Origin: Vitrella brassicaformis CCMP3155
Taxonomy: Eukaryota; Protista; Chromerida
DNA: 25,326 nucleotides
NCBI GenBank assembly: GCA_001179505.1
Contig: CDMY01000742.1
Span: 1-25,326 of the forward strand
Reading direction: 5' to 3'
Shown here: piece by piece, positions 1 to 25,326 of the stretch
Layout: each line of letters starts with the position of its first letter
Position numbering within the stretch: the first letter of the stretch is position 1
The notes under the pieces: model-generated
What the model was told of the DNA's origin: nothing
Databases searched by the model: none
What the model saw: only the letters and a program-made list of their open reading frames with translations
Translations under genes and position numbers: made by a program

Positions 1-234
1 CGTCTCGCGGGATGAGGGTAGGTGGAGGGGGTTGAGTGTAGTCCGATACACGCTCGCTCATCCGAAAAGGAGGAGAAACAGCCGAGAAATCACCAACTCA
101 ATCATGCCAGTGACTGATTCTTGCTGCACAGTGGGTTAGTACATAGCTGGCCCACTTACGCGTCTGACCCGCTTATACGTACTACAGAGCTGACCCACTT
201 GTTCTCCAGCGACTTCTGGAGTGATTTCTCGCTG
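1..234 (-). mobile_element. Small non-autonomous retroelement, copy 1 (5' part; continues off the window to the left)
   Basis: 1-106 matches 3000-3105 at 102/106 nt. The GC-rich sequence continues to 234, where an AT-rich viral ORF remnant starts abruptly. 79-93 is an inverted match to 221-234, which ties 107-234 to the same element. Confidence 0.7.
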
Positions 235-423
235 TAAATATGAAAATATAATTGAACAACTAAATAATCATAATGAATACAAAAAATAATTGAAACACAT
301 TATACGAAATGTAAAATCAAGATTAAAGAAACTCCTATTACTGGATATGATGTATTTACACATTTTAATTATGAAGATTGTATTATGGAAATAACTAAAA
401 AAAAAGAATATTCATGCGACTAA
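235..423 (+). pseudogene. 5'-truncated viral ORF remnant
   Basis: Reads ..KYENIIEQLNNHNEYKK, then after a break ..HYTKCKIKIKETPITGYDVFTHFNYEDCIMEITKKKEYSCD*. There is no start codon, and it abuts retroelement copy 1. Confidence 0.4.
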
Positions 424-2270: not shown

Positions 2271-2665
2271 AATTATATAAATGTTTTTCTGGTTCCTTTT
2301 GCATACTTATACTATCACCCTTTAAATAAATAGAACACTTAATATATATAGATAAAAATGGAAACATATAACAAATTGGTGAAAGAGTTTAAAGAGAAAA
2401 TTGAGAAGTTTGTATTACGAGAGGGTGAGGTGAAGTATAAATATATAGAAGATTTAAAAATATATGAAAAAAAACCGTATAATTTAATTAAAAGTAAACC
2501 TTTTTATGTCAGTAGAGAAAAAGAAATATTTAAATTCGATTATTTTAAGTGTAAAGTATGCGGGATGAATGTGGCAAGAACAAAAAGTTATCTGGATAGA
2601 CAGGCAATTCTAAAGGAACTAAACGAAAAATATAATGGGAAAAGAATAAAAGCACCAAAATACAA

Positions 2666-3112
2666 GGGGGGGGAAACTGTCATTAACCGTAACACTCGTC
2701 TGTGTGTCCGTGATACTCATACAAATACAGTCCCATCAGCACGCAGAGTCAAATAGGCTCAAGGGGAGGAGGGATCAATCCCCGCCCCATCAGCACACCC
2801 CAGTCCCGCAAACCCTCCCCTCCCTCCCCCACGCAGACAGAAGCTAGTCGCACGCGCGAGAAATTTGTGCATGTGCCGCGCTTGCAGTTGAGACAGTTAG
2901 TGCAGAGGCGCTTGTGATTCCGGCAGTCACATCGTCGGCTGCATGTGGACAGCGCAGACGTCCCTTTCTCGTTGCATGCGCAACAGGGGGGCCCGCCGCC
3001 GTCTCGCGGGATGAGGATAGGTGGAGGGGGTTGGGTGTAGTCCGATACACGCTCGCTCATCCGAAAAGGAGGAGGAACAGCCAAGAAATCACCAACTCAA
3101 TCATGAGGGGGG
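2666..3112 (-). mobile_element. Small retroelement, copy 2 (447 bp, 5'-truncated), with 12-bp TSD
   Basis: Flanked by ACCAAAATACAA at 2654-2665 and 3113-3124. It is a GC-rich island in AT-rich DNA, shares sequence with copies 1 and 3, and has short G runs at both junctions. Confidence 0.88.
2749..3060 (-). CDS. Short Cys-rich ORF inside the retroelement (103 aa), possibly the vestigial N-terminus of a non-LTR retrotransposon ORF
   Basis: MSERVSDYTQPPPP...CCACNEKGTSALSTCSRRCDCRNHKRLCTNCLNCKRGTCTN is a CXC-like cluster of ten Cys. The family assignment is inference. Confidence 0.45.
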   Translation of the reverse strand: MSERVSDYTQPPPPILIPRDGGGPPCCACNEKGTSALSTCSRRCDCRNHKRLCTNCLNCKRGTCTNFSRVRLASVCVGEGGEGLRDWGVLMGRGLIPPPLEPI

Positions 3113-3406
3113 ACCAAAATACAATTATAAACAAGTTTTGGACATTTTCAGATTAGAGAATAAAGTATTTTATCAAAGTAATTACAGAGATAAAGAACAG
3201 TTTTACAATGAAGTAAATGATAGTAATTTAAACGCTATTAATATTAAGTATGTTAACAAATGTAATATATGTGCGTCTTGTTTAAAAGGAAGAATGCAGC
3301 ATTTCAATACAAAATTTAAATCTACAAAAGAAGAAATAAAAAAATGTTTAACGCTTGAAGAATTAAGAAATATAGCGACATTCATTAAACTTCCTAATCT
3401 TGAAGT

Positions 3407-3474
3407 GCTGATGGGACTGTATTTGTATGAGTATCACGGACACACAGACGAGTGTTACGGTTAATGACAGTTTC
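3407..3474 (+). mobile_element. Small retroelement, copy 3 (68 bp, severely 5'-truncated), with 15-bp TSD
   Basis: Flanked by TCCTAATCTTGAAGT at 3392-3406 and 3475-3489. 3405-3474 is the exact reverse complement of 2673-2742 (70/70). Confidence 0.9.
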
Positions 3475-3564
3475 TCCTAATCTTGAAGTTTGTTTAAAAT
3501 ATGGGACAGATAAACTGTTGGATGAAATGATTAAATATGAAAAGGGAAAAGTTAATGTTCTGTA

Positions 3565-4046
3565 TTAAATAATAGATTGTAAAACCTTTTTACCATTTTC
3601 AATTTCTTCATCAATTACTTTACTACATCCATAACAGATATTAGCAGATATACTCCATATTTCATCAGGACACATCTTAATATTATTACAACGAACACAG
3701 AAAGCCAGTTTTTCACAATTTGTGCATCTTCTCTTGTATCGGTGCGTAAATTCAACTTCTGGTTCTTCTTTGTTGCAAAAACTACATTTTTTTTGCTTCG
3801 GTGGAGGCTTTAAATTTTCATATTCTTGTTTGAAGCATTCTTTACATTTATAATTCAATCCATCTTTTGTAGATTTATCCTTGCTAAATTCTTTCTGATT
3901 TTTCATAGATTGACATGCAGTGCATTTCTTACAATAATTTTCATCTATTTCTTTATGCTGTCTTTGTTTACGCAGTGTGTTTCTTCTTTCTTTCCATTAT
4001 CACATTTTCTACGGTAATTCTTATAACCATTTCCGTATTTTCCATA
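3565..4046 (-). pseudogene. Viral multi-Zn-ribbon protein, frameshifted near its 5' end
   Basis: ORF 3565-3906 extends upstream in frame as ..YCKKCTACQSMKNQKEFSKDKSTKDGLNYKCKEC, a CxxC...F...DG...CxxC ribbon common in viruses. An ATG at 4046 (MEKYGNGY..) joins it through a one-base frameshift. Confidence 0.6.
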
Positions 4047-4237: not shown

Positions 4238-7200
4238 ATGCCTCCGAGATTTAATTTGGAAGAACTGGCAAAGAAGCATGCAGTGAGAAAACAAGGGGCA
4301 TTTTTACAGAGAAAACCTAAAATACAGAAAATAGAAGGAATGGATGGAAAAATGATTAATTGGGTTGCTAATACTGAAAAATTACAATTAATGGGAAATA
4401 ATATTAACTATTTGACAAGTGAAATAAAAGAGTATTACGAAAAAGTTGTTGAGGAATTTAAAAGTGAAAATCCAAATTTAATAGTGGAAATAAATATTAA
4501 TTTTATTTACTATCCAGAAGAAGGACAAGGTGTAAATAAGAAAACAATCGAAAAAACACACAAAGAAAGTTGTAGTTCAGTTAATGTAATCAAACATGCA
4601 TTGGAAAGTGCTATGGAAAAGTCCGTAAATCCAAGTCCCAGAACGTTTTATTTAGATAATGTTGAAATATTAATAGACCGAGGACAACCAGAAAGTGGTG
4701 GATGTAGTGGTAGAGAATATCACACAACAACTGACCCGATACCAACTCAATTTCCTCATTTTGCATCGATAAAAGGTAAGAAAATAGCGATTGACCCTAA
4801 TACATTCATGCAAGTTGATTTTACAACGCCGAAAGCCAAAAATAATAACTGTTTGTTTGCAATTAAAAGTGGACGGTAGAGCAATAAAAGCAGACAAAAT
4901 AAGACAAGATTTAGGTATTTCAAAAAACGTGCCTATTCATATCAATCAAGTTGAAGACATATTTAAGTATTACAAACATAAACTTGGTTTTTCTCAATGA
5001 AAAGGTTACATTTTAACCGATATTTTTTTAAATCAATTTAAGCATTATACGGAGGACGATGGTAATGTATTGATAGAGTTAGGAGTTGTTTATGGAAAAA
5101 TTAATGAAGGTCATTACGTTTTGATTAACGACGCTTATGAAGTTGGATTTTGTAAAAAATGTAAGTCAGAGTGGCAAAGAACACATACCGAAGAAGAGTG
5201 TAGTAAAGTTAGGAATAAAAAAATTAAAAGAAAATCATTGCAAAGAAATGAAATAGAAAAGATACAAGATAGAGTAAAAATACTTAATGTGACAGATAAA
5301 AAAGAAATTATTTATAAATACGCATTTGTGGGTTTTGATTTAGAAACGAAACAAGGAAAAAGTCTTTTATACGATAAAAACGGAAAGTTAACGGACATAT
5401 ATGCGAATGAATACATGATTAATGGAGAATATCAAATGAATAAAGGTGAAGGTTGTTTTCAGATATTTGTGGATAAATTAAAATATTTGTCAGATAAAAT
5501 TGTAACAGCATTTAATGGATGCAGATTTGATTTCTATTATTTACTTTCTTATTTAATAAATGATGGGATAGAGATTAGAAAATTGATTATCAACAATGGA
5601 AGAATCATGAGTTTTGAATTTGGAAATAACAATACAGTGTTTGATATTAATTTATTTCTCAGCACTTCATTGAAAGAAGCCTGCAAAGCTTATCAAATTC
5701 AAAATGGGAATTTGACCATAAAAAAATACAGACATGGGAAGATGTGAAGAAATGGGAATTTGAGTGGAAACCATATTTAAAATATGATGTTTTGGCGTTA
5801 ATGGAATTAATTGAAACGTTTGGACATCTTGTGTATACTCACAGACAATGTAACATCACCAGATTTATGACAGGTAGTCAAATGACTTATGATTTGTGGG
5901 CATCGCAATTGGATATTAGTGATTTAATTTGTAAACCAACAGAAGAGGAAAATAAAGTTGATAGAGAAGCGACAAGAGGTGCTCGATGTTTGCCACATAT
6001 AAGAGATTACGAAAGTTCATTATACAAGTTAATTGAAGCATTTAACTGTGTTAAAGAATTCGATGAAAAGCAGTGTATTAAACGCAAAATGGATATGCTT
6101 ACTCAAAGAGAAAAAAATAGAATAAGTATTATTAGAGATGCTAAAACGGATGAATATTTATCCTATAAATCAACACCTTTTAAATACAAAAACAAAACAT
6201 TTCACACGTCACCTTATGATATACACATGAGTATTGAATATAGAAAAATGGAAGAAAATTTATACAGGTATATTCAAGAGAAAAAAGATTTCATGGTATG
6301 TGTAGATGTCAGTAGTTTGTATCCGACTGCTATGGCAAATTATGAATATCCAATTGGAAAACGCATAAAATCATTAAATCAAAAGAGAGAATTTGAAGAC
6401 GGAAAAATTGGGATATATTACATTGAATACACACCGCCGACCAATATTAGAGTGCCAATATTAGCACGAAAAACAGAGAAACAGTGATATTGCATAATTA
6501 CAGACAATGGTTAGAATTTCGTAGAGATTACAGGTTTGAAAGTCATTCACTTACATCGGAAAAAAACTTCTTACTGTGAGAGGAGAAAAGAAAGAAAATG
6601 AGAAGAAAATAACAAAGCCCTCATATATTGGAACCTTTATTTTAGATTATTCAAAACACATAATGTTACGATACACGAAAATTATTGACCCAACACTGCA
6701 AACTCCTGTTTTCTATTACACAGACACCGATAGTTTATATTTGGATTATGAAGCGTTTGAAAAAATTAAAGCATCTGGTCAATTTAAAATAGAGGAAACA
6801 GTTGATGATAAGGATGAGAATGGAAAAGAAGTGAAAGAAGACAAAAGAGAAGAACAGATAGAAATTAATAAAGCAAAGCAGAGGAAGAAACTGGGAAAAT
6901 TAGCAGAATGTATTGTTGAAGACATAGAATTAGGTATTTTGACCAATGATATTGATGATGAAGGATTAATACTAAAAGCACGATTTGATGCACCTAAATG
7001 TTATGTTTGTGAGTATGTAGATATGAATACCAATATTTGTTTTGGTGATAATGGAAAGAAAAGAATTAAAGGAATACCTTTAAAAGAAAAAGGAGCGTCT
7101 TATAAAACTTTTGAGGAAATAAATTATGTTGAAATGAAGAAAAATACAAATGGAAATTGGTATGAGACAGGTAAGAAACACAAGGTCAAAGATACGTATT

Positions 7201-7475
7201 TTTCAAAAATAGATTTGAGTGATGTAGAAATACAACAAGACGAAAAACATTATATTACTTACGATATGTATTTTACAGATGAGCCTACAGTAATTAAGTT
7301 GCCTAATAGAATTAAAAAAGTAGCATTTAATCGAACAAAAAATCAGTTAATGAGCGGTGTGGATATATTCAGTATATTATGCAATGATGAGCAAAAAACA
7401 TTTAGAAAATCATTCTTCGATAAAATGGAATTTAAAGATGGACAATGGTATCCATCAAATTATTCTACACAATAA
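4238..7475 (+). pseudogene. polB: Protein-primed family B DNA polymerase (probable terminal protein, vOTU, exonuclease, polymerase), fragmented
   Basis: ExoI FVGFDLET, ExoII FNGCRFD, ExoIII YLKYD, motif A DVSSLYPTAM, PSYIGTFILDYSK, motif C YYTDTDS and PKCY are spread over ORFs 4238-4879, 5070-5747, 5744-6487 and 6576-7475. There are several frameshifts, and motif B (KxxxNSxYG) was not found. Confidence 0.95.
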
Positions 7476-7490
7476 TATAATGATACAATA

Positions 7491-8591
7491 ATGCCATTAT
7501 CAGATAATCAGAAGAAAATATTGAGAGATATCTATTACAGTCCAGCAACCGGATATCAATCAGCAACACAACTATATCGTAAAGCAAAACAACAAGATAA
7601 AAGTATTACACAGAAAGGCGTAAAAGATTTTTTAAGTCGTCAAGAGATACAGCAGACATACATACAAGTGACGAGAGCAAAGGGTTTTAGTTTTATCGCT
7701 CCTCACAAGCGTTTTGAGTTTCAAATTGACCTTGTTTTTTTGCCCAATCCTCGATTTAATAATGGATACATCGGTTTATTGACTTGCATCGATGTATTTA
7801 CCAAAAGAGCGTGGGCTGTGCCTATTAAAGACAAAAAAGCAGGAACTATAGTAGAAGCATTTAAAGTAATACAGACAAAGCTAGGGAAACCAAATTATAT
7901 ATTCTCTGATTTAGGCAGTGAATTTTTGGGTGAATTTACTGAATATTGCAGGCAAAATAATATCACATTATTGAATTCCAAAAGTAAGTCCGTATTTGTT
8001 GAACGATGGCATAGAACGATTAAACTGATGATGAATAAAGCGTTGAGAAGCAAAAACTCAAAATCTTGGATTAGTATATTAAATGATATATTGAATAACT
8101 ATAACTCATCTTATCATACAACAATTAAAATGGCACCTAATAATGCTGTGAAGGCGGAAAACCAGGAAGAAGTCATGAAGAATATTATTAAGAGAGCACA
8201 CAGAGAGCATATTAAAATACCACTGAATAAAGGAGATAAAGTAAGAATTAGAATTGTAAAAAATGTATTTACCAGAGGGTTTAAACCTACGTTTTGAAAA
8301 GAGATATATGAAATTCAAGAGGTTAACGATAATATACCGATGACACCGTATAAAGTCAATGGAAATTATTTCATGAGGGCTGATTTATTGAAAGTAGACG
8401 CAGAAGGAGTAGAAAGAAATGTTCAACCCATGCCAATTACTGTGCAGGAGAGGCGAGAACGTGAACAGAGAATAACCCAATCAAAGCAACCTGAAAATAG
8501 GATTGGTACTCGTGCTTTCGCTAAACAGAAAGGTTTTGGATTGAAAACGCAAAGAAAAGAAGGAAGACTTGAAGATTATGAGGAACTTTAA
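7491..8591 (+). pseudogene. int: Retroviral-type (rve, DDE) integrase of Polinton type with an in-frame TGA at 8295-8297
   Basis: FQIDLV, LTCIDVFTKRAWAVP, FSDLGSEF and VERWHRTIK motifs. The N-terminus IYYSP..LY is typical of Polinton integrases. ORF 8340-8591 is in the same frame after RGFKPTF*KEIYEI. Confidence 0.95.
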
Positions 8592-12711: not shown

Positions 12712-13946
12712 ATGTCAAAATCTGTTGTTGAGAAGTCCCTTTCACTTCCCAAAAATACGGACTCTATTTTACAGCGATTTACTCATAGGCCAATTAAATC
12801 AAAGTCAAACCTTGTTTTTAATCTACCAAGCCGCAGTTTATCAAATACTTCAAGTTGGAACCGAAGTGAATGGCGGGTGTATCATAAAATTTCTGGGCAA
12901 ACATCGTTTTCCGGAAGTGCTGTATGGGAATTGGAGGAAAACTTTATGTTGATTGAACCATATTTAGAAATCGAATTTGAACCCTTAACGCAGACTGGTG
13001 GAACTACACAATATTATCATCGCACAGCACTACTTATCGATACTATAACTCTGTTTAGCGGGGGTGGAAGTCATCAATTAAAGCAGATAGAAGGAACTGA
13101 TTTATATTTTAGCATACTATTTTCACACACTAAAGATGCTCTACAAACGATTAATAGTTTCAGCGGATTAGAAAGCAGTGTTGAACGCTCACAGAATAAT
13201 ACCGATGGCAAACTTCGGTATTTCTTACCTTTGAAGTCAGTATTTTTCAACACCAATATTCCGCTGTGGTATTTGAAATCGAAACTTCGTCTGGTCATCA
13301 AATTCAAGGATGCTTCGGTGGCAAGTTATGGAGATGGAACATCACCTTCAACTCCGGCGATTAAACACTGCCTGCTTCATTGTCATTATATGGATTACAA
13401 CAGAAGCGTTAAACAAGCACTAATAGCAAATCGTAATATTAAACATTATCGTGTCGTTTCAAGTCATCGCACTAAACTTCATATTCCATCAGGCACCCTT
13501 TCATTTGCTGACCAATACCTAAATTTCAACCATCCATCGATCGTATTACAAAGGTTAATGCGGAAGGAGATGATGTTATTGACAACAATGTGCCTATCAA
13601 ACAATTCGTGCTAAAAGACCAGAACGGGACAATTATTAGTTATGCTTCTCCAATCGATGGTGAGTTTTGTAGGTCGGTATTAGCGTATACTCAGTGGGAC
13701 AATTTTCTGAGGAACTCGCCTTTTCTTGACGTAAATACCCTTTATTTTTTCAGTTTTGCTCAAAATCCAGCAGTCGCACTTTTGACAGGAAATAACACGG
13801 GCTGGAGACGCTTATTTTCAAATGAGAGAATTACAATCGATTTCGATAGTCCTACATCAGAAGATTATACGCTTCATCTAATTAGTTATGCGTATGAAAT
13901 GCTACAATTAAATCCTGCTAATGGAAGTTTAGTTGTCCTTTCTTGA
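12712..13946 (+). pseudogene. MCP: Double-jelly-roll major capsid protein, split into two overlapping ORFs (12712-13614 and 13590-13946)
   Basis: LIDTITLFSGG...IEGTDLY, YFLPLKSVFF..NIPLWYLKSKLRLVIKF and C-terminal YFFSFAQNP...TG...YAYEMLQL resemble DJR MCP motifs. It lies in the same element as the packaging ATPase. Confidence 0.85.
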
Positions 13947-15632: not shown

Positions 15633-16295
15633 TTATTCTATAATTCCAAACCATTTATAATCACAGTAATTCTCCTTTATTTCTGTGTTTGAACTGCGTG
15701 CATTTACTGAAACAAAACAATAATTATTAGTAGCATTATAAAAATACTTATAAAATTCTGATTTTTTCTTGCCATCATTAAATATCTCTTCGTGAAGAAT
15801 TGCCAGACTAGCATGGCCACATTGGCGTAATAAAAATGCAAAATCATAAATGCTTCTTATTAATGTTGATACTCTTTTTACAGACTGACTTATTAGAATA
15901 ATACTGACATTCATATGCCTAACAATAGTAAGTAATCTCTCAAATTCCTTGCTTCTCGTATTGTCCATCGTAGCAATACTATCATCAAGTATCATTAGCA
16001 CTCGTCTTCGCTTCTTTGTCTTCTCTTGATGTTCCGCCAACGCCTTGATTTGCTCTTCTGTTATTTTGGTCAAAACCTTATGACGCTTCACGCCAGTCTT
16101 CAACCACAGTTCAGGTTGCACCGTCACAATCACTTCATCATCAAACTTATTCCTATCCCGCAGATACCGATATAATGATAGTGCAATCAAGGTTTTTCCC
16201 GTATTTATACGTCCTGTAATTAACAATATCCAGCACTTCTTCTCGTTCGCGATCTTGTTGAATATCTCTCGGCAGTTCCGTATTTTTTCGTGCAT
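15633..16295 (-). CDS. A32/FtsK-HerA-like genome packaging ATPase, intact
   Basis: Walker A ITGRINTGKT, Walker B LMILDD, and downstream VRH and ISQ motifs. Confidence 0.93.
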   Translation of the reverse strand: MHEKIRNCREIFNKIANEKKCWILLITGRINTGKTLIALSLYRYLRDRNKFDDEVIVTVQPELWLKTGVKRHKVLTKITEEQIKALAEHQEKTKKRRRVLMILDDSIATMDNTRSKEFERLLTIVRHMNVSIILISQSVKRVSTLIRSIYDFAFLLRQCGHASLAILHEEIFNDGKKKSEFYKYFYNATNNYCFVSVNARSSNTEIKENYCDYKWFGIIE

Positions 16296-16497: not shown

Positions 16498-16540
16498 TAT
16501 ATATGATAAAATTAAAAAAACAACAACGCACTTTTAAAAT

Positions 16541-17083
16541 TCACCGCTGTGCATCGTGACAATATGGGGCGGTATTCACCTGCCCTGCCACCACCTGTTC
16601 ATTGTTTTGCCATTCTCCACACGCCCATTCCTCATTTCCTCTCCATTGTTTTTCTCATTTGTCACGAGTAGTCTTTTCATCTCGTGTCAATCGTCTTTTG
16701 ATCTCATCCATTTGTTTTTCTCATTTGTCACGAGTAGAGTTTCTATCTCGTGTCGGTCGTTTTTTGATTTTTGAACGTGTCTTTTTTTTCCTCTTTTTGA
16801 GGCACAGGCAACTGAGTGCCTTTCTCCTCCTCTTTGAGCCACCTCCGTTAATACCAAACCCCGTCCACTCTCCCTGTGAGAGCTGGCCGTTAGCAGGTCT
16901 AGCCGTTCGTTTAGTCGGCTCGTATCGTAAATTCCGTATACCATCCCCCTCCCAAGATTTGAACCTCTGCGGTAATGAATGGCATAAACCCAGTTTTCCC
17001 ACTGAACTATGGTGGCAGGCGTCGGGGGGGGTCTGCTTAGTATGGAGGAGGTGGTAAATCACTTAGTATGCTGGTAAATCACT
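16541..17083. repeat. Candidate right terminal inverted repeat of the virus
   Basis: Non-coding region of intermediate GC. It has an internal tandem duplication (26-bp exact core at 16646-16671 and 16712-16737) and a terminal repeat TGGTAAATCACTTA at 17052-17065 and 17072-17085. The partner TIR is not in the window. Confidence 0.5.
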
Positions 17084-17203
17084 TATTAAGCTCGCATCGT
17101 CTTTTCAGCGGGTCTCTTGTCGTTTCTGACGTCGCATCTGCCAGTTTCGCTTGTCGGTTGAGTTCCAGTCAACGTTTCCTCTGTTTTCATCCATTGGCAA
17201 GCG

Positions 17204-17712
17204 ATGGCGTGGACGTCACAGACCCAGTTGCCCTTCTTCGTCCTGATTTTGGGCATTCACGCCGTTGTGGTGCATCCGCTGTATCACAGCAAGGCCATCG
17301 ACCGCAACAGCAATGACCCCTTCCCGCACAGCCAGTGGGTAGAGGAGGTCAACGAAATCATCGAGAGCGCCGTGCGAAAGGTGCCTCGTGCGGCGATGGC
17401 GGGGCAGCAAGGGGGTAGCAGCAGCAGCAGCAGCAAGAAGAAACGACCGAGTGTGAACCTCGCCAACCAAGACCACACGTGTGCGCCACTTACGGCTGCA
17501 ACAACAAGGTGGGGTCGGGTCGGTGCAAGGTCTGCCACTGTTGCGGGAAGGCGGTGTGCAAGATGCACGGGAACGGGCACCACTACACCAACAACGAGGT
17601 GGTCGGCATGATACTCAACAAGATGAAGAAGATGGGAATGATGAGCGAGGAGAACTTCGTGTGCCTCAACTGTGTTAAGGTCAAGTTCGTCCAGGGTGTG
17701 AAGGCTCACTAA
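17204..17712 (+). pseudogene. Possible piggyBac-like transposase 3' remnant
   Basis: A GVDVTD motif resembles piggyBac GGVDxxD. It is followed by a hydrophobic L....A....LY helix and then, after a frameshift near 17478, CATYGC...CHCCGKAVCKMH...VCLNC, which resembles the piggyBac C-terminal Cys-rich domain. No TIR was found. Confidence 0.42.
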
Positions 17713-17840
17713 GTTGCCCATCCATGGCCTGTCTTGCCCATTCGATGGATGGATTAGTTGTGAGCGCGAGTTCACACCCTGGCCGACCTGCTCTTTTCTT
17801 GATGGATGGATGAATATGAGAGAGGCCAGCTCTCTGCTTC

Positions 17841-17871
<31 letters not shown>

Positions 17872-17961
17872 TATGCGGCTTGCCCATCTCTTTTGAGTGT
17901 CAGCCAACACAGACCGGTTGAGTGCACATTTCCCGTTGGACAAAGGTCACTGTGCGCGTGT

Positions 17962-18076
17962 GTGTGGAGGGGGGGGAGGGATTCATTGCATTCCATTCCA
18001 TCGCTTGGTGGACGCGTGTGTGTGTGGACCACGCAATGAAATGGAATGCAATGAATCCCTCCCCCCCCCTCCACAC
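17962..18076. repeat. Foldback hairpin (about 43-bp arms, 28-nt loop), MITE-like
   Basis: 17962-18004 matches the reverse complement of 18033-18076 with two substitutions and a one-base G-run difference. A partial third arm lies near 18190-18210. Confidence 0.85.
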
Positions 18077-18216
18077 CAGCCACACCGACAGAGACAGACA
18101 GACAGACAGACAAATGCGCGATATCAAAGACGGACGGGGGACATTTCGATGAGGGACAGTGGACGGACCTGTATGTCTTCATGTGGGCGGGGGATCCATT
18201 GCATTCCATTTGGTTG

Positions 18217-18246
18217 TGTGGTGTGGTGTGGTGTGGTGTGGTGTGG
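18217..18246. repeat. (TGTGG)6 microsatellite, one of many host simple repeats (others: TC about 17838-17870, CA about 18817-18864, GT about 19305-19330, GAG about 24394-24428)
   Basis: Directly visible. Confidence 0.9.
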
Positions 18247-18644
18247 TGCACCGTCCCTGGTGCCTGCTGGCTGGCTGGTAGCTGACGTGCCCTTTTCGGC
18301 CTACACGTAAAGGTGTGCTGAAACACACAACACACACAGAGACAGCCAATACGCACACCCATTGATGTGTGCGTGTGGTGTATATTTGTTTCTTTCAGTT
18401 TCTGATGCGTCTTCGCGATCTGCATCGATGAGCGAGGCCTCGGTTGGACACGCCGCACACGCGATGCTCTAAACTGCGAGCTCCCTCCTTCCCCCGTTCG
18501 CCGAAAAGTGCCGAGACCTTCTGTTAGGAAGCGAAGGAGACGCTGAGAGAGAAACGCTGGAAAACTGAAACGAAAAGCGGGCCTGGATTGCCAGCTTCGT
18601 CTCATGTGATTTATCGGTGGGTAAAGTGCGCTGATATAGGTCAT

Positions 18645-18731
18645 CTGAGTGTTCTCATTCCTATGTCCCCTCCCTGAGTGTTCTCATTTCCATGTCCCCT
18701 CCCTGAGTGTTCTCATTCCCATGTCCCCTCC
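18645..18731. repeat. 29-bp minisatellite, three copies
   Basis: CTGAGTGTTCTCATTCCTATGTCCCCTCC units start at 18645, 18674 and 18703 with no spacers. Confidence 0.95.
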
Positions 18732-19735
18732 CTGGCCGCGGAATGTCTCGCTTCGTTCTCCCATCTTCATGATGGCTCTCCCCCACAACACACACCCACC
18801 CACCCACCCACCGAATCACACACACACACACACACACCCCAACACACACACACCCACACACACACGTCCTCCCCCTCCACCCACACCCAGCACAGAGCAG
18901 CCGGTCGTCCGGCCCGCACGCACTCTCGATTCGAGTACACATGACTGCCTGGCAAACAGCCACACAGACACACTGTGGGACACATGGCCACAGATGCACT
19001 TATCGATTACAAAGACACACAGACACGACGAAGAAACAAACTACCGGCGATGGCACTTGAGCTGCAAGAGATGTCTCCTTCCCTCCCACCCCCACATGCA
19101 AACACACACACATGCACGCAGGCAGGCAGGCAGCATGCCACACGCAGACGCAAGACACGCATCAACAAGGCTTGTTCTACTTGCTGCACTGCACTGCACA
19201 GTCAGTCAGTCGATGTACGGGTGGTGAATGGAATGAGACGATAGATACTTGTGGACCGACCGACCAAGACAGAAAACATGGCGACAAAGAGGGACGAATA
19301 CGCACGTGTGTGTGTGTGTGTGTATGTGTGTATGGTGCAGGCCCACGCACACGAGAGAGTGAGCATAAGTGTGTGTGTGGCCGAGTCAGTCGAGTGCCTG
19401 TCTGTGATGGATATCATTGGAGGCCGGATGCGTGGATAAAAATGACTGACTGTATGACGTGACGTGCGTGTTGTGTGTCATCGGACTCTCTCGCCCCCAC
19501 GGAGGCGAGCACAAATCAAATACGATCATGCAGCCAGCAAACTTGAGGCATGCAACGCAGCCACGCACCCCCCCGCCCGACACAGACGCCCCAGCATTTA
19601 TTTGCTCATCCACCGAGGGAGCAAAATAAATCAGTGAATAAACGCATCCACGCAGACAGACAACGAATAATAACACGACAACACAGGAAGGAACGAAGGA
19701 AGATCGACCGAGCGAATCGTCCGCTCACCGCCCGC

Positions 19736-20445
19736 CTAGGGTCTGAGAAGGTTGCGTCCTGAGCCATTCTCAGCCTCGTCCGGCTCCTCGAAGGCGGCCT
19801 CAAAGACATGAAGCAGCTCAGTGCTGTTCAGCTCATCGAACTGGACCACGGGTAAATTGTCAAAGGTAGTGTCATTGCCGTGACGGGGCACAGGCTCTGA
19901 CACGCCAATGGGTCTCCCACCGGGGCAAAAGAGGGTGATTCTAGTCTGATCAGCACCACTTCGTTCTCTGATACCGTTGAAGCTCTGAAACAAACGGACA
20001 CACTACTGCATAGACGCAACGGCATCTCGAGATGTGCCTCCAGACTTACAGATCCGAAACAATCTATGGGGGCGTCGCCGGTCCAGCGCACTATGCCTTG
20101 GTCGCGGCGTCGGGCGAAAGCCACCCAGGTGTGGAAGCCGCCAATGTGGTCGACATCTCTGCGAGACACACATAACACGACTGTACCGCGCGGGCGGGAT
20201 ACTGAGCATTCCATATCTCACTGGATTGTCGCGCATTGGCCACGAGCGACGCTGGGGGTCTCCGGAAGAAATCCGAAACGACATTCGGGAGAGTCGAAAC
20301 TCTGGGGAAAAACTCTGATAATCATCAAGGGTGAAAAGGTCAGGGGGCAGTTGTTGCACAAGATAAAGGTGTGGGCTGAGATCCCAGGCAGGTGAATCGA
20401 CGCGCTGAGCAGAGCCAGGGCAATCGCAGCGAAAGAGCGGGCCAT
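19736..20445 (-). CDS. Host three-exon gene for a secreted Cys-containing protein (193 aa); exons 20445-20222, 20158-20050, 19984-19736
   Basis: Signal-peptide-like MARSFAAIALALLSASIHLPGISA. Introns of 63 nt (GTGAGA..CAG) and 65 nt (GTAAGT..TTTCAG) have compatible phases and give a 582-nt CDS. Confidence 0.75.
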
Positions 20446-21483
20446 GCTGAGAGAAAGAAGGCTGAGAGTTCTGACGGCCGGGTGGACAGTGTCTGTCAAG
20501 GCCTGGCGGTCCCTCTCCTTGCCGCACTGCTTCCGTTAGCGTCTTCGGTTAGCGTCATCTTTCGAATTCGGATCGCAGGCGTTGGCCACCTTCGCCATCT
20601 GCCATTAATTCGCCGGGGGGAGGAGATCACAGGAGACCACGCGAATCTTCGCGAGCTTGAATGCGAGCTTTAAAAAAACGGCCCTGCGTGCCCATTTTCC
20701 GGGCAGGATGGCGAAGAAGAAGATGACACATCGTCAGAAGAAGAAACAGCGGCACCAGATCATCATAGAGGAAGAAGCAACGCTGCGGCAGAAACAGCTC
20801 GACAAGCGGCGCAGGCGGCAGCAGAAGGACAACAACATGAAGGTCTGCCCAACGCCCTGTGCACAAAAGAGCCGCCGGACAGATCGACGAGTGGCTGGTG
20901 TGCGTTGTGCGTTTTGTGTGCAGGAGGACACGCCGCCTCAGGGTTCCAAGTGCATTCCTTGTATACACAACAAGCCATGACCAAGCAATGTACTCCGCTG
21001 TGTGTGGCGTTTCACACCAGATGTTGCCTTTGGCTTGGAGTATCTGCAGAAGAGCTCCACCATCGTCACAAGACCAGGCATGTCGACGAAGCAGATGGTC
21101 TTGTGCGAAACGGGCTCGATGCAAGTGCGAAATGGGCTCGCGCTTTGCAACGCCTCGGCCTTGCATCGGCATCTGTTTCCGCCCAACAGTTCTCTTCGGC
21201 AGCAAACGACTTCATCTCAGGCTCTGCGCCGCTAGCGAGATAAGGCGACCGGAATTCTAATACCCTAGCCCAGTTCAATTAAAAGTCCCACGTACACCCC
21301 GTTTGTGGAGGGAGAAGAAGGAGAGAGAAAAGAGGGATTCCCATCACTCCCACCTCCATCAGCATTCTTCAACCGCAGATCTTCACTTCCCGCCTTCGCG
21401 TCTTCGACTTCGACCTGTCAGCGACTCCCGACTCGCTCCCTCTGTCATCTCCTGCCTGTTTCGCTGAATTGTCTGTCATCATC

Positions 21484-21798
21484 ATGGCTCTCTTCCCGCG
21501 CCTGACGCTGTTGGTGCTCGCCGCTCTGCTGGTGGGGAGCATGGCCGAGGAGTGCGTGACGGACTCCGACTGCGACTCATCAGATGACGTCTGCAGGAAG
21601 AATGATGATGGAGAATGGCGGTGCGAATTTGCTGATAGTTGTGGAACCCCCTTTTGCGACTTGGATATCAAGATCCCATCCCCCCCTATAATGAATGACA
21701 TGAGAGGTCGATCTGCCCGCATCAAGCTAACTTGCACTTCATGGCCAGAAACGTGCATGAGTAGGTGCGGCGAAAGGAGTTCAAGTGAGATATGGTAG
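21484..21798 (+). CDS. Host small secreted Cys-rich protein (3' end may be spliced)
   Basis: MALFPRLTLLVLAALLVGSMA followed by EECVTDSDC...C; eight Cys in about 85 aa. Confidence 0.5.
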   Translation: MALFPRLTLLVLAALLVGSMAEECVTDSDCDSSDDVCRKNDDGEWRCEFADSCGTPFCDLDIKIPSPPIMNDMRGRSARIKLTCTSWPETCMSRCGERSSSEIW

Positions 21799-23143
21799 CG
21801 TCTTCTCTCCACGATTCCCTGGGAGGAGCAGGGAGGCGGCAAGCGTTCGGGTCGCTGTGAAACAATTGTACTTCTCCCTTCAGTTCCAACACTGTGTCTT
21901 TCCTTTCTTCGCATTCTCGCGTCATGAGCAAGGCGACGAGACACATGAATTTGATGAAATCATGGGGTGTCGTGCGTGTCGTGATCCTCGTGGTCCTGGT
22001 GATACTCGGCGCGACGCCAGGCGGTATGCAGCGGATGAGTGGTGGCAGTGGAAGGGTGGTGTGAGAAGGGGGGTGTTCGTGTGTGCAGGTAGTTGCCGTT
22101 CGGCGCGGCGGCAAGGGTGGAACGACACGCGCGGAGGGGAAGCGACATGTGGAGTGCTTTGTCGTGGGCGAGGAGGGTCGATTCGGGTGGAGGATGGTGA
22201 GTAGCAGCATTGAGGAGGTGGCCAACTGTGTGGCTCTGTTTTGTTTCAGGTGTGGCGAGTGAGACGATGGGTGCTGGTGAGCTATTGAGGCGACGAGTGT
22301 CAGCAATGCATGCGCCGTTACTGTTTGTCCCGCTGCGTGGTGGGAGCATAAGCGAATGTCGAGTGCTGGCGTGTCGTCGTCTGAGTGTGTGGGGGTGGTG
22401 TGTTGCGCAGGAGTGTGTGAGCGTTGGTCGAGGGACTTGCACTACACATATGCACGTAAGCGAGAGGGAGAGAAGACAGGAGGGCGAGGCAGGTGAGAGG
22501 CGCGTGTCCCTTCGAGAATCGAATGAATGGTGAAATACCGACTGAAAGGTAGGACACATGCCTGACTGAAAGGGCGTGTGGCGAAGGCGAGAATGAAAGC
22601 GAAATTGAGCGTGGCAAGAGCTACGTCCTCTGTGACGCGCGAGTGGAATGATTGGAATGTGATGGACGGGAAGGGGCATGTGCACAGATGATTAGGGAGA
22701 GGCACACAGAGAGCAGAGGAGGCACCGAGAGAAAGGGAGGTGACCATTGTCTGGTTTGATGATGTGTGCAGGTGCGGTGCGTCGTAATGTCCATGTCCAC
22801 ATGAGTATTGACGTGTAGGTAGAAGGATCTGTCCCATGACATGAACACGTAGATCCACATGAAGGTCGGGTTTCATGATGTGATGCACACACACACACAC
22901 ACAGTGCGGTCTGTACAAGATCCTCCACAAGAAATAACCACAAGAAATAACGCCCACAGAAAGAGAAAGACAGCCACATGCAAAGCAGCCACCACACTCA
23001 TCGATTCAGCGACTCCACCAGAAAGACACAGGCCAGAAAGAAGACACAGCTGTGCACAGCTCCCATGCACACAGAAAAAAAAGTCGCCAAGTGAGGCAGC
23101 ACGCCATAGAACACCAGCACTGTCAGAACGTAATCGTCCGTCT

Positions 23144-23336
23144 TGCTCTAAGATCCCCTCCCCCGCTCTCCGTAGCGGCCAGGCCATTTGGGACCCCACG
23201 CGGGTTCGAACGGCTGAGCTAGAATGACGGCCAACCTAAGATCCGCCACCAATAGACTATATAGCCGAGTTACTATCCTGAGCACCCGGTGGCCCTCGTC
23301 ATTGTCATGTGACCTCTTTCGCGCTACCCTGTAGCA
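23144..23336 (-). repeat. 3' LTR of the TRIM
   Basis: Direct repeat of 23442-23634, bounded by TG..CA. Confidence 0.9.
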
Positions 23337-23339
23337 TTA

Positions 23340-23349
23340 CCCCTCTTTC
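23340..23349 (-). promoter_or_regulatory. Polypurine tract
   Basis: Minus strand GAAAGAGGGG lies 3 nt before the 3' LTR. Confidence 0.75.
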
Positions 23350-23422
23350 ACGAGCGTTGAGCTCCGTCCAGCGCCCAGCCTCAAAGGTCACATACTTCCG
23401 ACGGCTACCTCGATCTTAGGCC

Positions 23423-23439
23423 TCCCGGACGGTGTACCA
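23423..23439 (-). promoter_or_regulatory. Primer-binding site, complementary to a tRNA 3' end (probably tRNA-Gly)
   Basis: Minus strand TGGTACACCGTCCGGGA starts 2 nt after the 5' LTR. Its complement CCCGG-ACGGTGT-A-CCA has T-stem, acceptor-stem, discriminator and CCA spacing. Confidence 0.75.
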
Positions 23440-23441
23440 AA

Positions 23442-23634
23442 TGCTTTAAGATCCCCTCCCACGCTCTCCGTAGCGGCCAGGCCATTTGGGACCCCACGCG
23501 GGTTCGAACGGCCGAGCTAGAATGACGGCCAACCTAAGATCCGCCACCAATAGACTATATAGCCGAGTTACTCTCCTGAGCACCCGATGGCCCTCGTCAT
23601 TGTCATGTGACCTCTTTCACGCTACCCTGTAGCA
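23442..23634 (-). repeat. 5' LTR of the TRIM
   Basis: Direct repeat of 23144-23336 at a 298-bp offset; contains TATATA. Confidence 0.9.
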
Positions 23635-24240
23635 GTCCACAGGACGGACAGATTGGTCTCGGGGTGGCGGCGATCGTTGTTGCACGTCCCGCCCTCCTGC
23701 GTCGTCGTGTTCGCGCACTGGATGCCGGCGTACATGCGGCGGCTGACAATGCTGCGTTGCATCTACACCACAGACACACACACACACACAAGATTAACAC
23801 TCCCTGCCCCTTACTCACCGCGCCAGGAAATTCCTTCATCCAGCACTTGCACTTGAACCAACGAGGGGGGTGGAGTGATGGCTGTTCGAATCGACACAGC
23901 CCACCAGACGTCAAAACTCCCATCAATTCACGTGCCACCGCACGAACCACCGCCCAAGCATGACACCCGATCACTCTCCTCTCAAGCTCTATAGCAACCA
24001 CCTTCCCATCTCAATACCGCCTGCAAACACCACAATACCTGCAGACTCCTCTAAACGACATCTGTCACTCACCGGCACTTTTGTGGAAAATGCATTTTCC
24101 AACCGAGCAGTGCGTCATTAGACGCCAGCACGCGTCCTGCAGCAGAGAGAAGGAGAGAAAACACGATCGGCGAGCTTTTCCTTGCGAGCTCAGGGCAAAT
24201 CCGGTGTTGTTCGTTCGTTCGTTCGTCGGAAGCGAACTCT

Positions 24241-24264
24241 GGCCGCCTTCGGCCGAAGGCGGCC
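24241..24264. repeat. Perfect 24-bp GC-rich palindrome
   Basis: GGCCGCCTTCGGCCGAAGGCGGCC equals its own reverse complement. Confidence 0.95.
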
Positions 24265-24529
24265 GTCAGAGAACTAGTCTAATATAAAAAGCCGTAACAA
24301 ACCCTAGCGAAACCCTGGACCAGGCTCGCCGAGGCTCGCCCTGCAGGCTCGCCCCCACGATCGCTGCCTGCCGCAGTAGAGAATGAACAAGGAAGGAGGA
24401 GGAGGAGGAGGAGGAGGAGGAGGAGGAGAAGGGACGTAGGGAGAGCGTTGGTGCTTGTTGCGGAGCCTTGGGGCAGGTGGGTGGGCGGGAGGGAGGGAGC
24501 TGACATGCATTGCCTTGACTGTTGGCCTT

Positions 24530-25151
24530 GATTCTTCGTGCAGGCCCGATCGCGCTTCTTTTCCTCGGCTCCCACCCGATCGGGTTTGCACGAAGAATTG
24601 CGTGTTGCAGACAGAGATTCGCCCAAATCTCAGACAGCGTCGCACTCATGAGCCAGCCGCCTTCAGAGACACCCTTGCTACGGGCCGCTCGCGAGCATGA
24701 CAGGCATGACGGCGACGGCTCACCCTCTCACAAATGCACATGGAGGACGGGGACGGCCACAGGGCATGCGCATTTCCACACTGGCCACGGGGCGGGGTGT
24801 GTGCGTGCCTCTGAGTGTTTGTTTCTGTCTGGCTTTGGCAGGGATGTGTGCCGTATTGGGCCGTTGAATGGGATGGTAAATGATTAGAATGATGAGGAGA
24901 GGAAGATGACTTCGTTCCTTATCAGGTGAGACGCAGCTCAAGACTGTAGCCATTGAATGATGTTTGGTATGGCTCTGTGCGGTCTGTGTGGTTATTGCTG
25001 ACAGGCGCCTCATGGGCCCGGGTTCCCTGAGGCTCGGGGCAGGTGGGTGGGTGGGAGGGAGGGATTCTTCTTGCAAGCCCGATCGCGCTTCTTTTTCTCG
25101 GCTCCCACCCGATCGTGTTTGCACGAAAAATTGCGTGTTGCAGACTGAGAT
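24530..25151. repeat. Dispersed 89-bp direct repeat (24530-24618 and 25063-25151)
   Basis: GATTCTTC...CCCGATCGCGCTTC...TTGCGTGTTGCAGAC.GAGAT occurs twice with a few substitutions. Both copies have an upstream GGGGCAGGTGGGTGGG.GGGAGGGAGGG block. Confidence 0.88.
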
Positions 25152-25326
25152 CCTGTGTAGTTTGCTGGCAGGCGCCTCATGGGCTTCCGCCTATGTCTTC
25201 GCTCCCGTTGGACGAGGATTGGGGGACCCGAGTGGACAACACAGTTGGTTTCATCGATTTTTGACCTCACACACCAGGGCAGATGGGAGCCAATGCATGA
25301 TGTGTGTGTGTTCTCTGTGTGTGTGT

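Follow-up and report, generated by a model that had tools for sequence, protein, structure and literature searches.

Insertions of L1-type LINEs and SINEs made by target-primed reverse transcription have a constant 3' end, variable 5' truncation, target duplications of about 7-20 bp, and microhomology or added bases where the 5' end is joined, and they reach high copy number. Published cases already exist of GC-rich retroelements that lie within endogenous virophages or Polinton-like viruses (PMC8547959, PMC12220804; both used here as partial texts). In the Cafeteria burkhardae endogenous mavirus-like elements (EMALEs), GC-rich Ngaro retrotransposons interrupt integrated virophage-type elements, sometimes within genes and sometimes twice per element; according to the available part of that paper these Ngaros are approximately 6 kb in length, are of the tyrosine-recombinase type with split direct repeats, and are mostly intergenic (PMC8547959). 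Retroelements also disrupt viral genes in the Polinton-like viruses of cryptophytes and ochrophytes, where they are recognised by a local jump in GC content; the elements described in the available text are 4-9.5 kb long with a reverse transcriptase, often with direct repeats, and the authors expect the viral element to lose activity after a nested retroelement insertion (PMC12220804).

The locus described here lies in a DNA stretch of 25,326 nucleotides (the window, as analysed at full length) and displays the same nesting as the EMALEs, along with the GC jump reported for the Polinton-like viruses: a viral gene of 24-27% GC in its pieces holds an insert of 58% GC. Unlike the Ngaros, the window's inserts are 68 and 447 bp long, with duplications of 12-15 bp, a common 3' end and no coding capacity seen, a non-LTR/SINE-like signature. 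They likewise differ in kind from the long, reverse transcriptase-bearing elements of the Polinton-like viruses, an account whose available text describes no truncated non-LTR copy and no inverted pair within one gene (PMC12220804). The two copies of a high-copy host repeat very probably arose separately, each by target-primed reverse transcription of a non-LTR retroposon after viral integration, and their effect was likely gene inactivation only. The double interruption is most likely ordinary provirus decay by retroposon insertions.

The provirus and its twice-interrupted gene

Judged by its gene content, the AT-rich element is a Polinton/virophage-like provirus, with a polymerase B, an rve integrase and an A32-like ATPase among the following features.

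5070..7475, plus strand: protein-primed DNA polymerase B (PF03175, E 3.7e-19 on 5744-6487), with a YTDTDS motif in the third ORF
7491..8297, plus strand: rve-type integrase (PF00665, E 5.8e-8, with 33.4 bits where the cut-off is 32.6)
12712..13946, plus strand: capsid-candidate gene whose frame is broken once, near 13545-13548
15633..16295, minus strand: A32-like packaging ATPase (PF04665, E 1.1e-10)

A polymerase B, an rve integrase, an A32/FtsK-type ATPase, low GC content and residence in a eukaryotic genome are held in common with Polintons/Mavericks, Polinton-like viruses and virophages, whereas in this provirus the capsid is a candidate only, no protease was demonstrated, and the left end and terminal repeats lie outside the window. 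The provirus DNA (30% GC) adjoins host DNA of 55% GC, with its right end near 16500-16800 and its left end beyond the window, giving an element of about 16 kb or more. Frame breaks occur elsewhere in it as well, in the capsid-candidate gene and in the polymerase B, which is split over three frames with one break near 5720, at an A7 run, and another somewhere from 6487 to 6576. An intact 415-aa relative of the capsid candidate, P0002, encoded on a contig of 12,847 bases, is 86% and 90% identical to its two parts; the candidate itself matched no Pfam family, and its AF2 model (mean pLDDT 39) is too poor to classify. IMG/VR yielded no relatives of the integrase. It yielded none of the ATPase, and a word-based protein search with the ATPase found none either, so that the provirus lineage is poorly sampled. 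To its right, the 28 long ORFs in 16560-25326 gave no Pfam family.

The interrupted gene lies near the left side of the window, with RING-finger genes on one side and the Cys-rich convergent gene on the other, and consists of three open pieces separated by two inserts.

2358..2665, plus strand: viral gene piece 1, open from the start codon to the first break; the left copy of a 12-bp duplication is 2654-2665
2666..3112, minus strand: insert 1, 447 bp, with the repeat sense strand on the minus strand and a perfect 12-bp duplication
3113..3406, plus strand: viral gene piece 2, open; its first bases are the right 12-bp copy (3113-3124) and its last ones the left copy of a 15-bp duplication (3392-3406)
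3407..3474, plus strand: insert 2, 68 bp (70 bp with the GT at 3405-3406 that is common to the duplication), with a perfect 15-bp duplication
3475..3568, plus strand: viral gene piece 3, open; it starts with the right 15-bp copy (3475-3489) and has its stop codon at 3566-3568
3565..3906, minus strand: Cys-rich convergent ORF of 113 aa, for which no Pfam family was found

The sequence-only reading had proposed that one repeat family struck this gene (2358-3568, plus strand) twice, in opposite orientations, with a duplication at each insert, and that taking out each insert with one duplication copy gives a continuous frame of 222 aa. All of this was confirmed. The window contains the 12-bp duplication, ACCAAAATACAA, exactly two times (at 2654 and 3113), and likewise the 15-bp duplication, TCCTAATCTTGAAGT (at 3392 and 3475), which is made up of 13 bp and 2 bases of microhomology. 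An insert plus one duplication copy amounts to 459 bases (0 mod 3) for insert 1 and to 83 bases (2 mod 3) for insert 2; counted from 2358, the open frame is 0 in pieces 1 and 2 and 2 in piece 3, and in these frames the two copies of either duplication encode identical residues. By arithmetic alone, with no sequence joined, 1211-459-83 leaves 669 bases, or 222 codons and a stop. The restored ORF would end at 3568, where, also as proposed, its stop overlaps that of the convergent neighbour (end 3565), by 2 bases.

P0001, a 222-aa homologue that is intact and comes from elsewhere, on a contig of 10,728 bases, aligns collinearly with every piece; its matches are 2367-2663, 3117-3410 and 3494-3562, in that order. 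Identity is 61% for piece 1 (P0001 residues 6-104), 51% for piece 2 (residues 103-196/200) and 61% for piece 3 (residues 200-222). The alignment has no gap at the first break, where the KY of the 12-bp duplication aligns to residues 103-104 from either side, and differs in length by two residues at the second. P0001 was the sole relative found with HMMER, using piece 2 against 1.84 billion representative proteins; scans of IMG/VR with piece 1 and with P0001, and of JGI metagenomes with P0001, gave no relative. This single intact and collinear 222-aa relative shows that the interrupted orphan gene is real and its breaks clean. No Pfam family was found on the gene pieces, the best Pfam match of P0001 was LIM (E 0.022, below the cut-off), the best PDB sequence match had an E of 0.11, the best ESM Atlas score was 0.75, and the AF2 model of P0001 had a mean pLDDT of 53.3. 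Two CxxC pairs conserved between the window gene and P0001 suggest zinc binding.

The same evidence bears on whether a single complex event, such as a retroposition in which inversion occurred (twin priming) or a rearrangement by which part of insert 1 became both duplicated and inverted, could account for both inserts, which are identical over 70 bases, inverted, and only 279-294 bases apart. Twin priming in L1 elements yields inverted segments that are adjacent and lie inside a single duplication. Here the inserts have separate perfect duplications that differ in sequence and length, and the segment of the gene that separates them is unbroken and runs collinearly with P0001. We consider a single event highly improbable and retain two independent insertions.

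The gene had also been proposed to carry no other lesion and to have been intact when hit. This proposal has weaker support than claimed: 7% of point changes make a stop, and with a probability of no stop of 0.71 at 0.7% divergence and of 0.09 at 5%, a stop-free frame shows low divergence since disruption and no more than that. The further frame breaks in the provirus weaken the proposal as well. The proposed comparison with empty sites in sister copies brought no support: at 85% likeness, no contig joint in X1, X2, X4 or X9 skips either insert, which does not prove that such sites are absent. The joints found in these contigs were 1742>2670, 2788>2918 and 4061>4932, with one contig each. A diverged sister copy was seen to the left of the viral gene (15 differences and 21 gap letters over 824-1066; 38 of 301 over 1860-2160), and no second contig over the viral gene pieces occurred among the contigs of the same four runs at that likeness.

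The inserted repeat and its mode of insertion

A third copy of the repeat lies at the left edge of the window.

1..239, minus strand: copy 0 of the host repeat, 96% identical to 3000-3105 and exceeding insert 1 on the 5' side by about 130 bases

Copy 0 is itself 5'-truncated, its 3' part lies beyond the left edge of the window, and other genomic copies continue beyond position 239 with common sequence. Insert 1 ends at its 3' side in ...GACAGTTTC and a C-run (2666-2673 on the plus strand), and its 5' junction has 7 extra bases (3106-3112) that are absent from copy 0. Insert 2 corresponds to the last 68-70 bases of the sense strand of insert 1, that is, to the 3'-terminal part of the repeat only, in plus-strand sense and without the C-run; at its 5' junction a GT is common to the duplication and the element. 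With insert 2 terminal and copy 0 extending further 5', the three copies agree at one end and vary at the opposite end.

Depth over the repeat exceeds that over viral DNA by a factor of hundreds in each of the DNA data sets X1, X2 and X4. Summed depth, which is not equal to copy number, reached 26,050 (X1), 8,833 (X2) and 3,542 (X4) in the bin 2673-2839, against approximately 30-36, 9-11 and 3-7, respectively, in viral single-copy bins. In X1 it drops to 4,156 and 1,104 in bins further 5' along the repeat, roughly a 5'-truncation gradient. The loose ends of other copies have differing flanks (agreement 0.51-0.58) and cease to match at 2665-2668, indicating that the C-run belongs to the 3' end of the repeat; the run is about 8 bases long in insert 1, and other copies match 6-8 of these. 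As the flanks of other copies are mostly not AT-rich, the element is a general host repeat.

The great abundance of the repeat, together with the breaking of short-read contigs within it, would be compatible with repeat reads misplaced inside a viral gene during assembly. A contig of 390 letters matches 3045-3434 with 0 differences in 3 of 3 DNA runs (X1, X2 and X4, from three studies and under two organism labels), although the best-matching run may be the window's own source and the independence of the runs is not certain. This contig bridges the 3112/3113 junction and extends 28 letters into insert 2, where the bridge threshold is 31. Junction sequence is also included in an X1 contig over 2131-2694, which runs 29 letters into insert 1, and in contigs from all three runs that start at 3448 with 27 letters of insert 2. 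Misassembly, moreover, does not produce perfect duplications. In view of the matching contigs an assembly artefact was rejected as verging on negligible in probability, and the inserts are treated as genuine.

Insert 1 is not simply a 5'-truncated copy. The sequence of other copies departs from that of insert 1 at an internal breakpoint (2860/2861) and continues differently on both sides, which speaks against simple 5' truncation and would fit an internal deletion, a template-switch product or a composite subfamily. A metagenome contig (n=1) has another boundary, at 3109, so that insert 1 could instead be a full-length short element. Positions 2754, 2892 and 3017 of insert 1 differ from all other contigs there in X1, X2, X9 and four further runs; in X4, position 2754 does so against nearly all of the depth. 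These few private differences, the perfect duplications and the identity of the two inserts over their common 70 bases suggest that the insertions are young.

No reverse transcriptase or endonuclease ORF was seen, every frame of copy 0 and of insert 1 carrying stops, and the assignment to retroposons is consequently drawn from insertion signatures. A Cys-rich ORF of 103 aa (2749-3060, minus strand) was judged spurious; it spans the 2860/2861 breakpoint and matches no Pfam family. ARAGORN reported 0 tRNA genes in the window, and in an Rfam search nothing matched within the inserts at E values up to 5. No SINE-type head of tRNA, 5S or 7SL origin, with its internal pol III promoter, was thus recognised in the copies seen. 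A 24-base word of the repeat had 0 matches in JGI metagenomes, and a 17-base word had none in a literature search.

A short, high-copy repeat flanked by duplications, of which insert 1 and its duplication make up a multiple of 3, could also be read as a non-autonomous DNA transposon or as a spliced introner that left the gene functional. Against both, the duplication lengths differ, no terminal inverted repeats are found on the inserts, and insert 2 is a terminal fragment with a duplication of its own. Introners are further opposed by the splice sites. There is no GT in the first duplication or in the first bases of insert 1, which contains an in-frame stop at 2754-2756, and the sole GT...AG around insert 2 (3405...3488) takes out 84 bases and runs into a stop; at neither site would splicing remove the insert and one duplication copy in frame. 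Both forms of this reading were rejected and have very little probability.

Retroposition of a non-LTR element is instead indicated by the constant 3' end, the variable 5' ends with truncation, and the perfect duplications of different length (12 and 15 bp), one set to each insert. In the mechanism we propose, a first nick would fall at the start of the duplication and cDNA would be primed on the RNA 3' end (...GACAGTTTC and the C-run). Incomplete synthesis or a short template would give 5' truncation, and the 5' end would be joined by the 2-base microhomology at insert 2 or with the 7 extra bases at insert 1. Staggered second-strand cuts would then yield the duplications of 12 bp and 13-15 bp. 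These insertions would be later than viral integration. The presence of three copies within 3.5 kb may reflect the tolerance of a dead provirus to insertion, a local target preference, or both; the chance of finding three or more copies in a stretch of that length was put at about 2e-6 to 5e-5, a rough figure for which copy numbers and genome sizes were assumed.

The constant 3' end, 5' variation, variable duplications, junction microhomology or extra bases and high copy number of the window repeat are all features of L1-type insertions. In contrast to these, it has no poly-A, no ORF2-like gene was seen, and insert 1 is internally broken. The 3' tail counts against the retroposon reading in that it is a C-run and not a poly-A or known simple repeat, and in that insert 2 has none.

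The inverted pair and possible silencing

The opposite orientation of the inserts results in an inverted repeat.

2673..2742 (left) and 3405..3474 (right), no strand assigned: arms of a perfect inverted repeat of 70 bp

The sequence-only reading had described these arms as perfect, and pairwise alignment bore this out with 70 consecutive identical bases; a repeat search returned slightly longer arms (2670-2742 and 3405-3477) of 73 nt that are 99% complementary and 662 nt apart. It is conceivable, although very unlikely, that a hypothetical transcript through 2670-3477 folds into a hairpin of 70-73 bp with a 662-nt loop and is diced into small RNAs directed against the provirus or the repeat family. 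Consistent with such a role, the 70-bp arms match perfectly inside what was formerly one transcription unit, and the predicted RNA fold of 2650-3495 pairs both arms (MFE -337.4 kcal/mol, shuffles -215, z -11.6). Hairpin loci arising from inverted transposon copies are also known, as with Mu killer and MuDR in maize, where the available text likewise describes an inverted duplication of transposon sequence from which read-through from a flanking gene could give hairpin RNA (PMC3440606). Mu killer, however, has an arm of approximately 4 kb and genetically proven silencing (PMC3440606, partial text), whereas the window locus has 70-bp arms and a hairpin predicted from the DNA letters.

Several points weigh against silencing. 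Transcription of the viral locus is hypothetical; arm-derived small RNAs would target hundreds of repeat copies and not viral sequence, so that the viral flanks would be reachable only by spreading; and an inverted repeat of this sort arises by chance wherever two copies of a common repeat insert in opposite directions. Among the listed runs that contain the locus, none was RNA. Runs X14, X15, X16 and X20, of unknown kind or guessed to be RNA, cover only the repeat parts (7 of 30 bins each), which says nothing on expression. That the inverted pair would be a working hairpin locus, whose small RNAs act against the retroposon family and nucleate silencing of the provirus, we hold to be very unlikely. 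If it were true, read-through from the viral gene promoter would produce a 70-bp dsRNA, and a dead virus gene would serve as a trap for transposons or viruses in a protist-like host.

A nested record of probable provirus decay

Under the preferred reading of two retroposition events, the general view of provirus decay is unchanged, as retroelement insertions in endogenous virophages and Polinton-like viruses have already been described. The locus would be a clean and well-bounded case of nesting at three levels, with a host retroposon inside a Polinton/virophage-like virus inside the host genome. This nesting gives a relative order in time, namely integration followed by at least three retroposon hits. 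The locus also defines, for an abundant and uncharacterised repeat whose tail is a C-run, both the 3' end and the signature of insertion.

Coding content of the interrupted gene

The two inserts lie in one viral gene, and the window opens with a further copy of their repeat, the third.

Copies of the repeat and the gene they interrupt
1-239, sense on the minus strand: copy 0 of the repeat
2358-3568, plus strand: interrupted viral gene, in pieces 2358-2665, 3113-3406 and 3475-3568
2666-3112, sense on the minus strand: insert 1 (447 bp, 58% GC)
3407-3474, sense on the plus strand: insert 2 (68 bp)

Insert 1 is flanked by ACCAAAATACAA at 2654 and 3113 and insert 2 by TCCTAATCTTGAAGT at 3392 and 3475, and each of these sequences occurs exactly twice in the window. 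The inserts have 70 identical bases in common, in inverted orientation (2673-2742 versus 3405-3474), and a repeat search gives inverted arms of 73 nt at 99%. The reading frame was assessed from the separate pieces and by length arithmetic rather than on a joined insert-free sequence, with the natural homologue P0001 as the intact reference. Counted from 2358, the open frames of the pieces are 0, 0 and 2, and in these frames the two copies of each duplication encode identical residues. An insert together with a single duplication amounts to 459 bases for insert 1 and 83 for insert 2, and 1211-459-83 leaves 669 bases, or 222 codons and a stop at 3566-3568, which overlaps the convergent ORF at 3565-3906 by two bases. 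The sequence-only reading, in which removal of each insert with one duplication restores a 222-aa ORF overlapping its convergent neighbor's stop, was correct in every coordinate.

A protein search among entries longer than the first piece returned one relative, P0001 (222 aa), from another source's 10,728-base contig. Its residues 6-104, 103-200 and 200-222 align, in order, to 2367-2663, 3117-3410 and 3494-3562, at 61%, 51% and 61% identity. The first break is gap-free, since the KY of the first duplication matches residues 103-104 from both sides; at the second, the window is two residues longer than P0001. Exhaustive HMMER searching of piece 2 against 1.84 billion representative proteins found P0001 as the sole match, making the gene a conserved orphan. 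With an E limit of 0.01 none of the three pieces matched a Pfam family, nor did P0001 above cut-off; a PDB sequence search gave nothing below E 0.1, and an ESM Atlas search gave no useful match. The AF2 model of P0001 has a mean pLDDT of 53. Two conserved CxxC pairs in the gene hint at zinc binding. Small cysteine-rich genes flank it, namely a RING finger (1335-1931), a Prok-RING_2-like gene (1968-2270) and an orphan containing several CxxC pairs (3565-3906), so that genes for putative zinc-binding proteins cluster in this part of the provirus (1335-2270 and 3565-3906).

The inserts are probably not an assembly artefact. Zero-difference contigs in all three DNA sequencing runs (X1, X2 and X4) span 3045-3434 and bridge the 3112/3113 junction, and further contigs extend 27-29 letters into the inserts, just missing the bridge threshold of 31. 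A marine-sediment metagenome run, X9, also matched 2312-2611 without differences at depth 2. The best-matching runs may include the window's own source.

Separate duplications with intact gene sequence in between indicate two events, and the same features rule out the origin of both inserts by a single inversion. The inserts look young, given the perfect duplications, the identical shared 70 bases and the few private differences of insert 1, which departs from every other contig at 2754, 2892 and 3017 only (a small depth share in X4 excepted at 2754). Of the earlier proposal that the gene was intact when hit, the stop-free frame stands; that state is weak evidence of intactness, since 7% of point changes make stops and the probability of gaining none falls from 0.71 at 0.7% divergence to 0.38 at 2%. 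Three copies in 3.5 kb exceed uniform scatter (on rough assumptions, P is about 2e-6 to 5e-5), and the remaining 22 kb of the window holds no further copy. Insertion tolerance in dead DNA, local preference or both would fit this clustering.

Anatomy and abundance of the repeat

One end is common to all three copies in the window and the other end varies. Insert 2 corresponds to the final 68-70 bases of insert 1 read on the minus strand, and copy 0 has 96% identity to 3000-3105 and extends ~130 bases beyond. Copy 0 meets viral DNA at ~239/240. Compared with other genomic copies, which continue with common sequence, it is truncated at its 5' end.

Depth of the repeat in three DNA runs, summed over Logan contigs (such sums do not give copy numbers)
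X1: bin 2673-2839, 26,050; single-copy viral bins, about 30-36
X2: bin 2673-2839, 8,833; single-copy viral bins, about 9-11
X4: bin 2673-2839, 3,542; single-copy viral bins, about 3-7

Repeat depth drops toward the element's 5' side. Other copies cease matching at 2665-2668, where their flanks are unrelated and mostly GC-normal, which places the family 3' end at ...GACAGTTTC followed by a C-run and marks the family as a general host repeat. An earlier suggestion was that read-through dsRNA from the inverted arms could seed small-RNA silencing of the viral locus. A hypothetical transcript of 2650-3495 is predicted to fold with its arms base-paired (MFE -337 kcal/mol, z -11.6 versus 20 shuffles). 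The arms are repeat sequence, so that small RNAs would match the repeat's many copies and not the virus, and such an inverted repeat arises from any opposite insertion pair of a common repeat. We regard silencing by a hairpin transcript as very unlikely.

The duplications of the two inserts are unequal in length, the 5' junction of insert 2 shows two bases of microhomology, that of insert 1 carries seven extra bases, and the inserts have no terminal inverted repeats. Taken together, the constant 3' end, the variable 5' ends and the junctions bear the marks of target-primed reverse transcription by a non-LTR retroposon. Four features of the repeat fit less neatly, namely its coding capacity, its tail, the point 2860/2861 and a boundary at 3109. 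The window's copies have stops in every frame, and a search of them revealed no reverse transcriptase; no tRNA-like head and no Rfam family was found for the repeat. Its tail is C-rich, which is uncommon among retroposons, and insert 2 lacks it. Both ends of insert 1 carry plus-strand G-runs (C-runs on the sense strand) at 2666-2673 and 3106-3112, the 3' C-run being common to other copies. The 5' C-run may, speculatively, be a template-jump remnant. At 2860/2861 other copies part from insert 1 on both sides and continue with consistent different sequence, so that insert 1 carries an internal deletion, is the product of a template switch or belongs to a composite subfamily. Another boundary, at 3109 in one metagenome contig, indicates that insert 1 could be a short element in complete form. 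A variant skipping 2788-2918 occurs in single contigs of X1 and X14.

The provirus and its flanks

Layout of the window
1-239: GC-rich repeat (copy 0)
240 to about 16,500: low-GC block, 27-37% GC, dense coding
5070-7475: protein-primed polymerase B (PF03175, E 3.7e-19)
low-GC block: rve integrase (PF00665, just over cut-off)
low-GC block: A32-like packaging ATPase (PF04665, E 1.1e-10)
12712-13946: capsid candidate gene; intact 415-aa relative P0002, 86-90% identical
about 17,000 to 25,326: high-GC DNA, 54-57% GC, microsatellites

Other products of the low-GC block include RING-finger proteins and many orphans, and judged by its gene set it is a provirus of Polinton/Maverick, Polinton-like virus or virophage type. 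P0002 is encoded on a 12,847-base contig elsewhere, which indicates that a close relative of the window's virus has already been sampled. Pfam gave no match to the capsid candidate, for which the AF2 model has a mean pLDDT of 39.

The provirus is damaged beyond the interrupted gene. Polymerase B is split across three reading frames, with breaks at ~5720 (near an A7 run) and between 6487 and 6576, and the capsid candidate has one frame break near 13545-13548. These breaks may be real decay or assembly errors, homopolymer errors in the case of polymerase B.

The same DNA runs also contain a diverged second copy of provirus part 824-2160, with 15 differences and 21 gap letters over 824-1066 and 38/301 differences over 1860-2160; no second contig is listed over the interrupted gene. 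One X2 contig on 2131-2571 has 470 letters, of which 441 fit the window and ~29 at one end do not; the latter may reflect how the organism labelled B differs. A 66-base unit in 1.9 copies (16642-16768, 87% matches) sits where the low-GC block ends on the right and may belong to the provirus terminus; the left terminus falls outside the window.

No recognizable genes were found in the 54-57% GC part, the host flank. At 17969-18222 it holds a 41-nt inverted repeat (18-nt spacer, 93% complementary) with a related third arm at 18185-18222, and (CA)n and (GT)n tracts lie nearby, as does a 29-base unit repeated three times (18645-18734). Direct repeats comprise two 193-nt copies 298 bases apart (23144-23634, 97%) and 89-nt copies 533 bases apart at 93%, accompanied by shorter repeats (24463-25151).

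Retroelements in other virophage-type proviruses

GC-rich retroelements nested in endogenous virophage-type viruses have already been published (PMC8547959, PMC12220804). Roughly a quarter of the endogenous mavirus-like elements in Cafeteria contain a ~6-kb Ngaro element, some inside genes, with two adjacent insertions in one element (PMC8547959). Polinton-like viruses of cryptophytes and ochrophytes carry gene-disrupting reverse-transcriptase elements of 4-9.5 kb (PMC12220804). In contrast to these elements, the window's copies are short, of non-LTR type and flanked by 12-15-bp duplications, and the neat double hit in one small gene differs from both cases.
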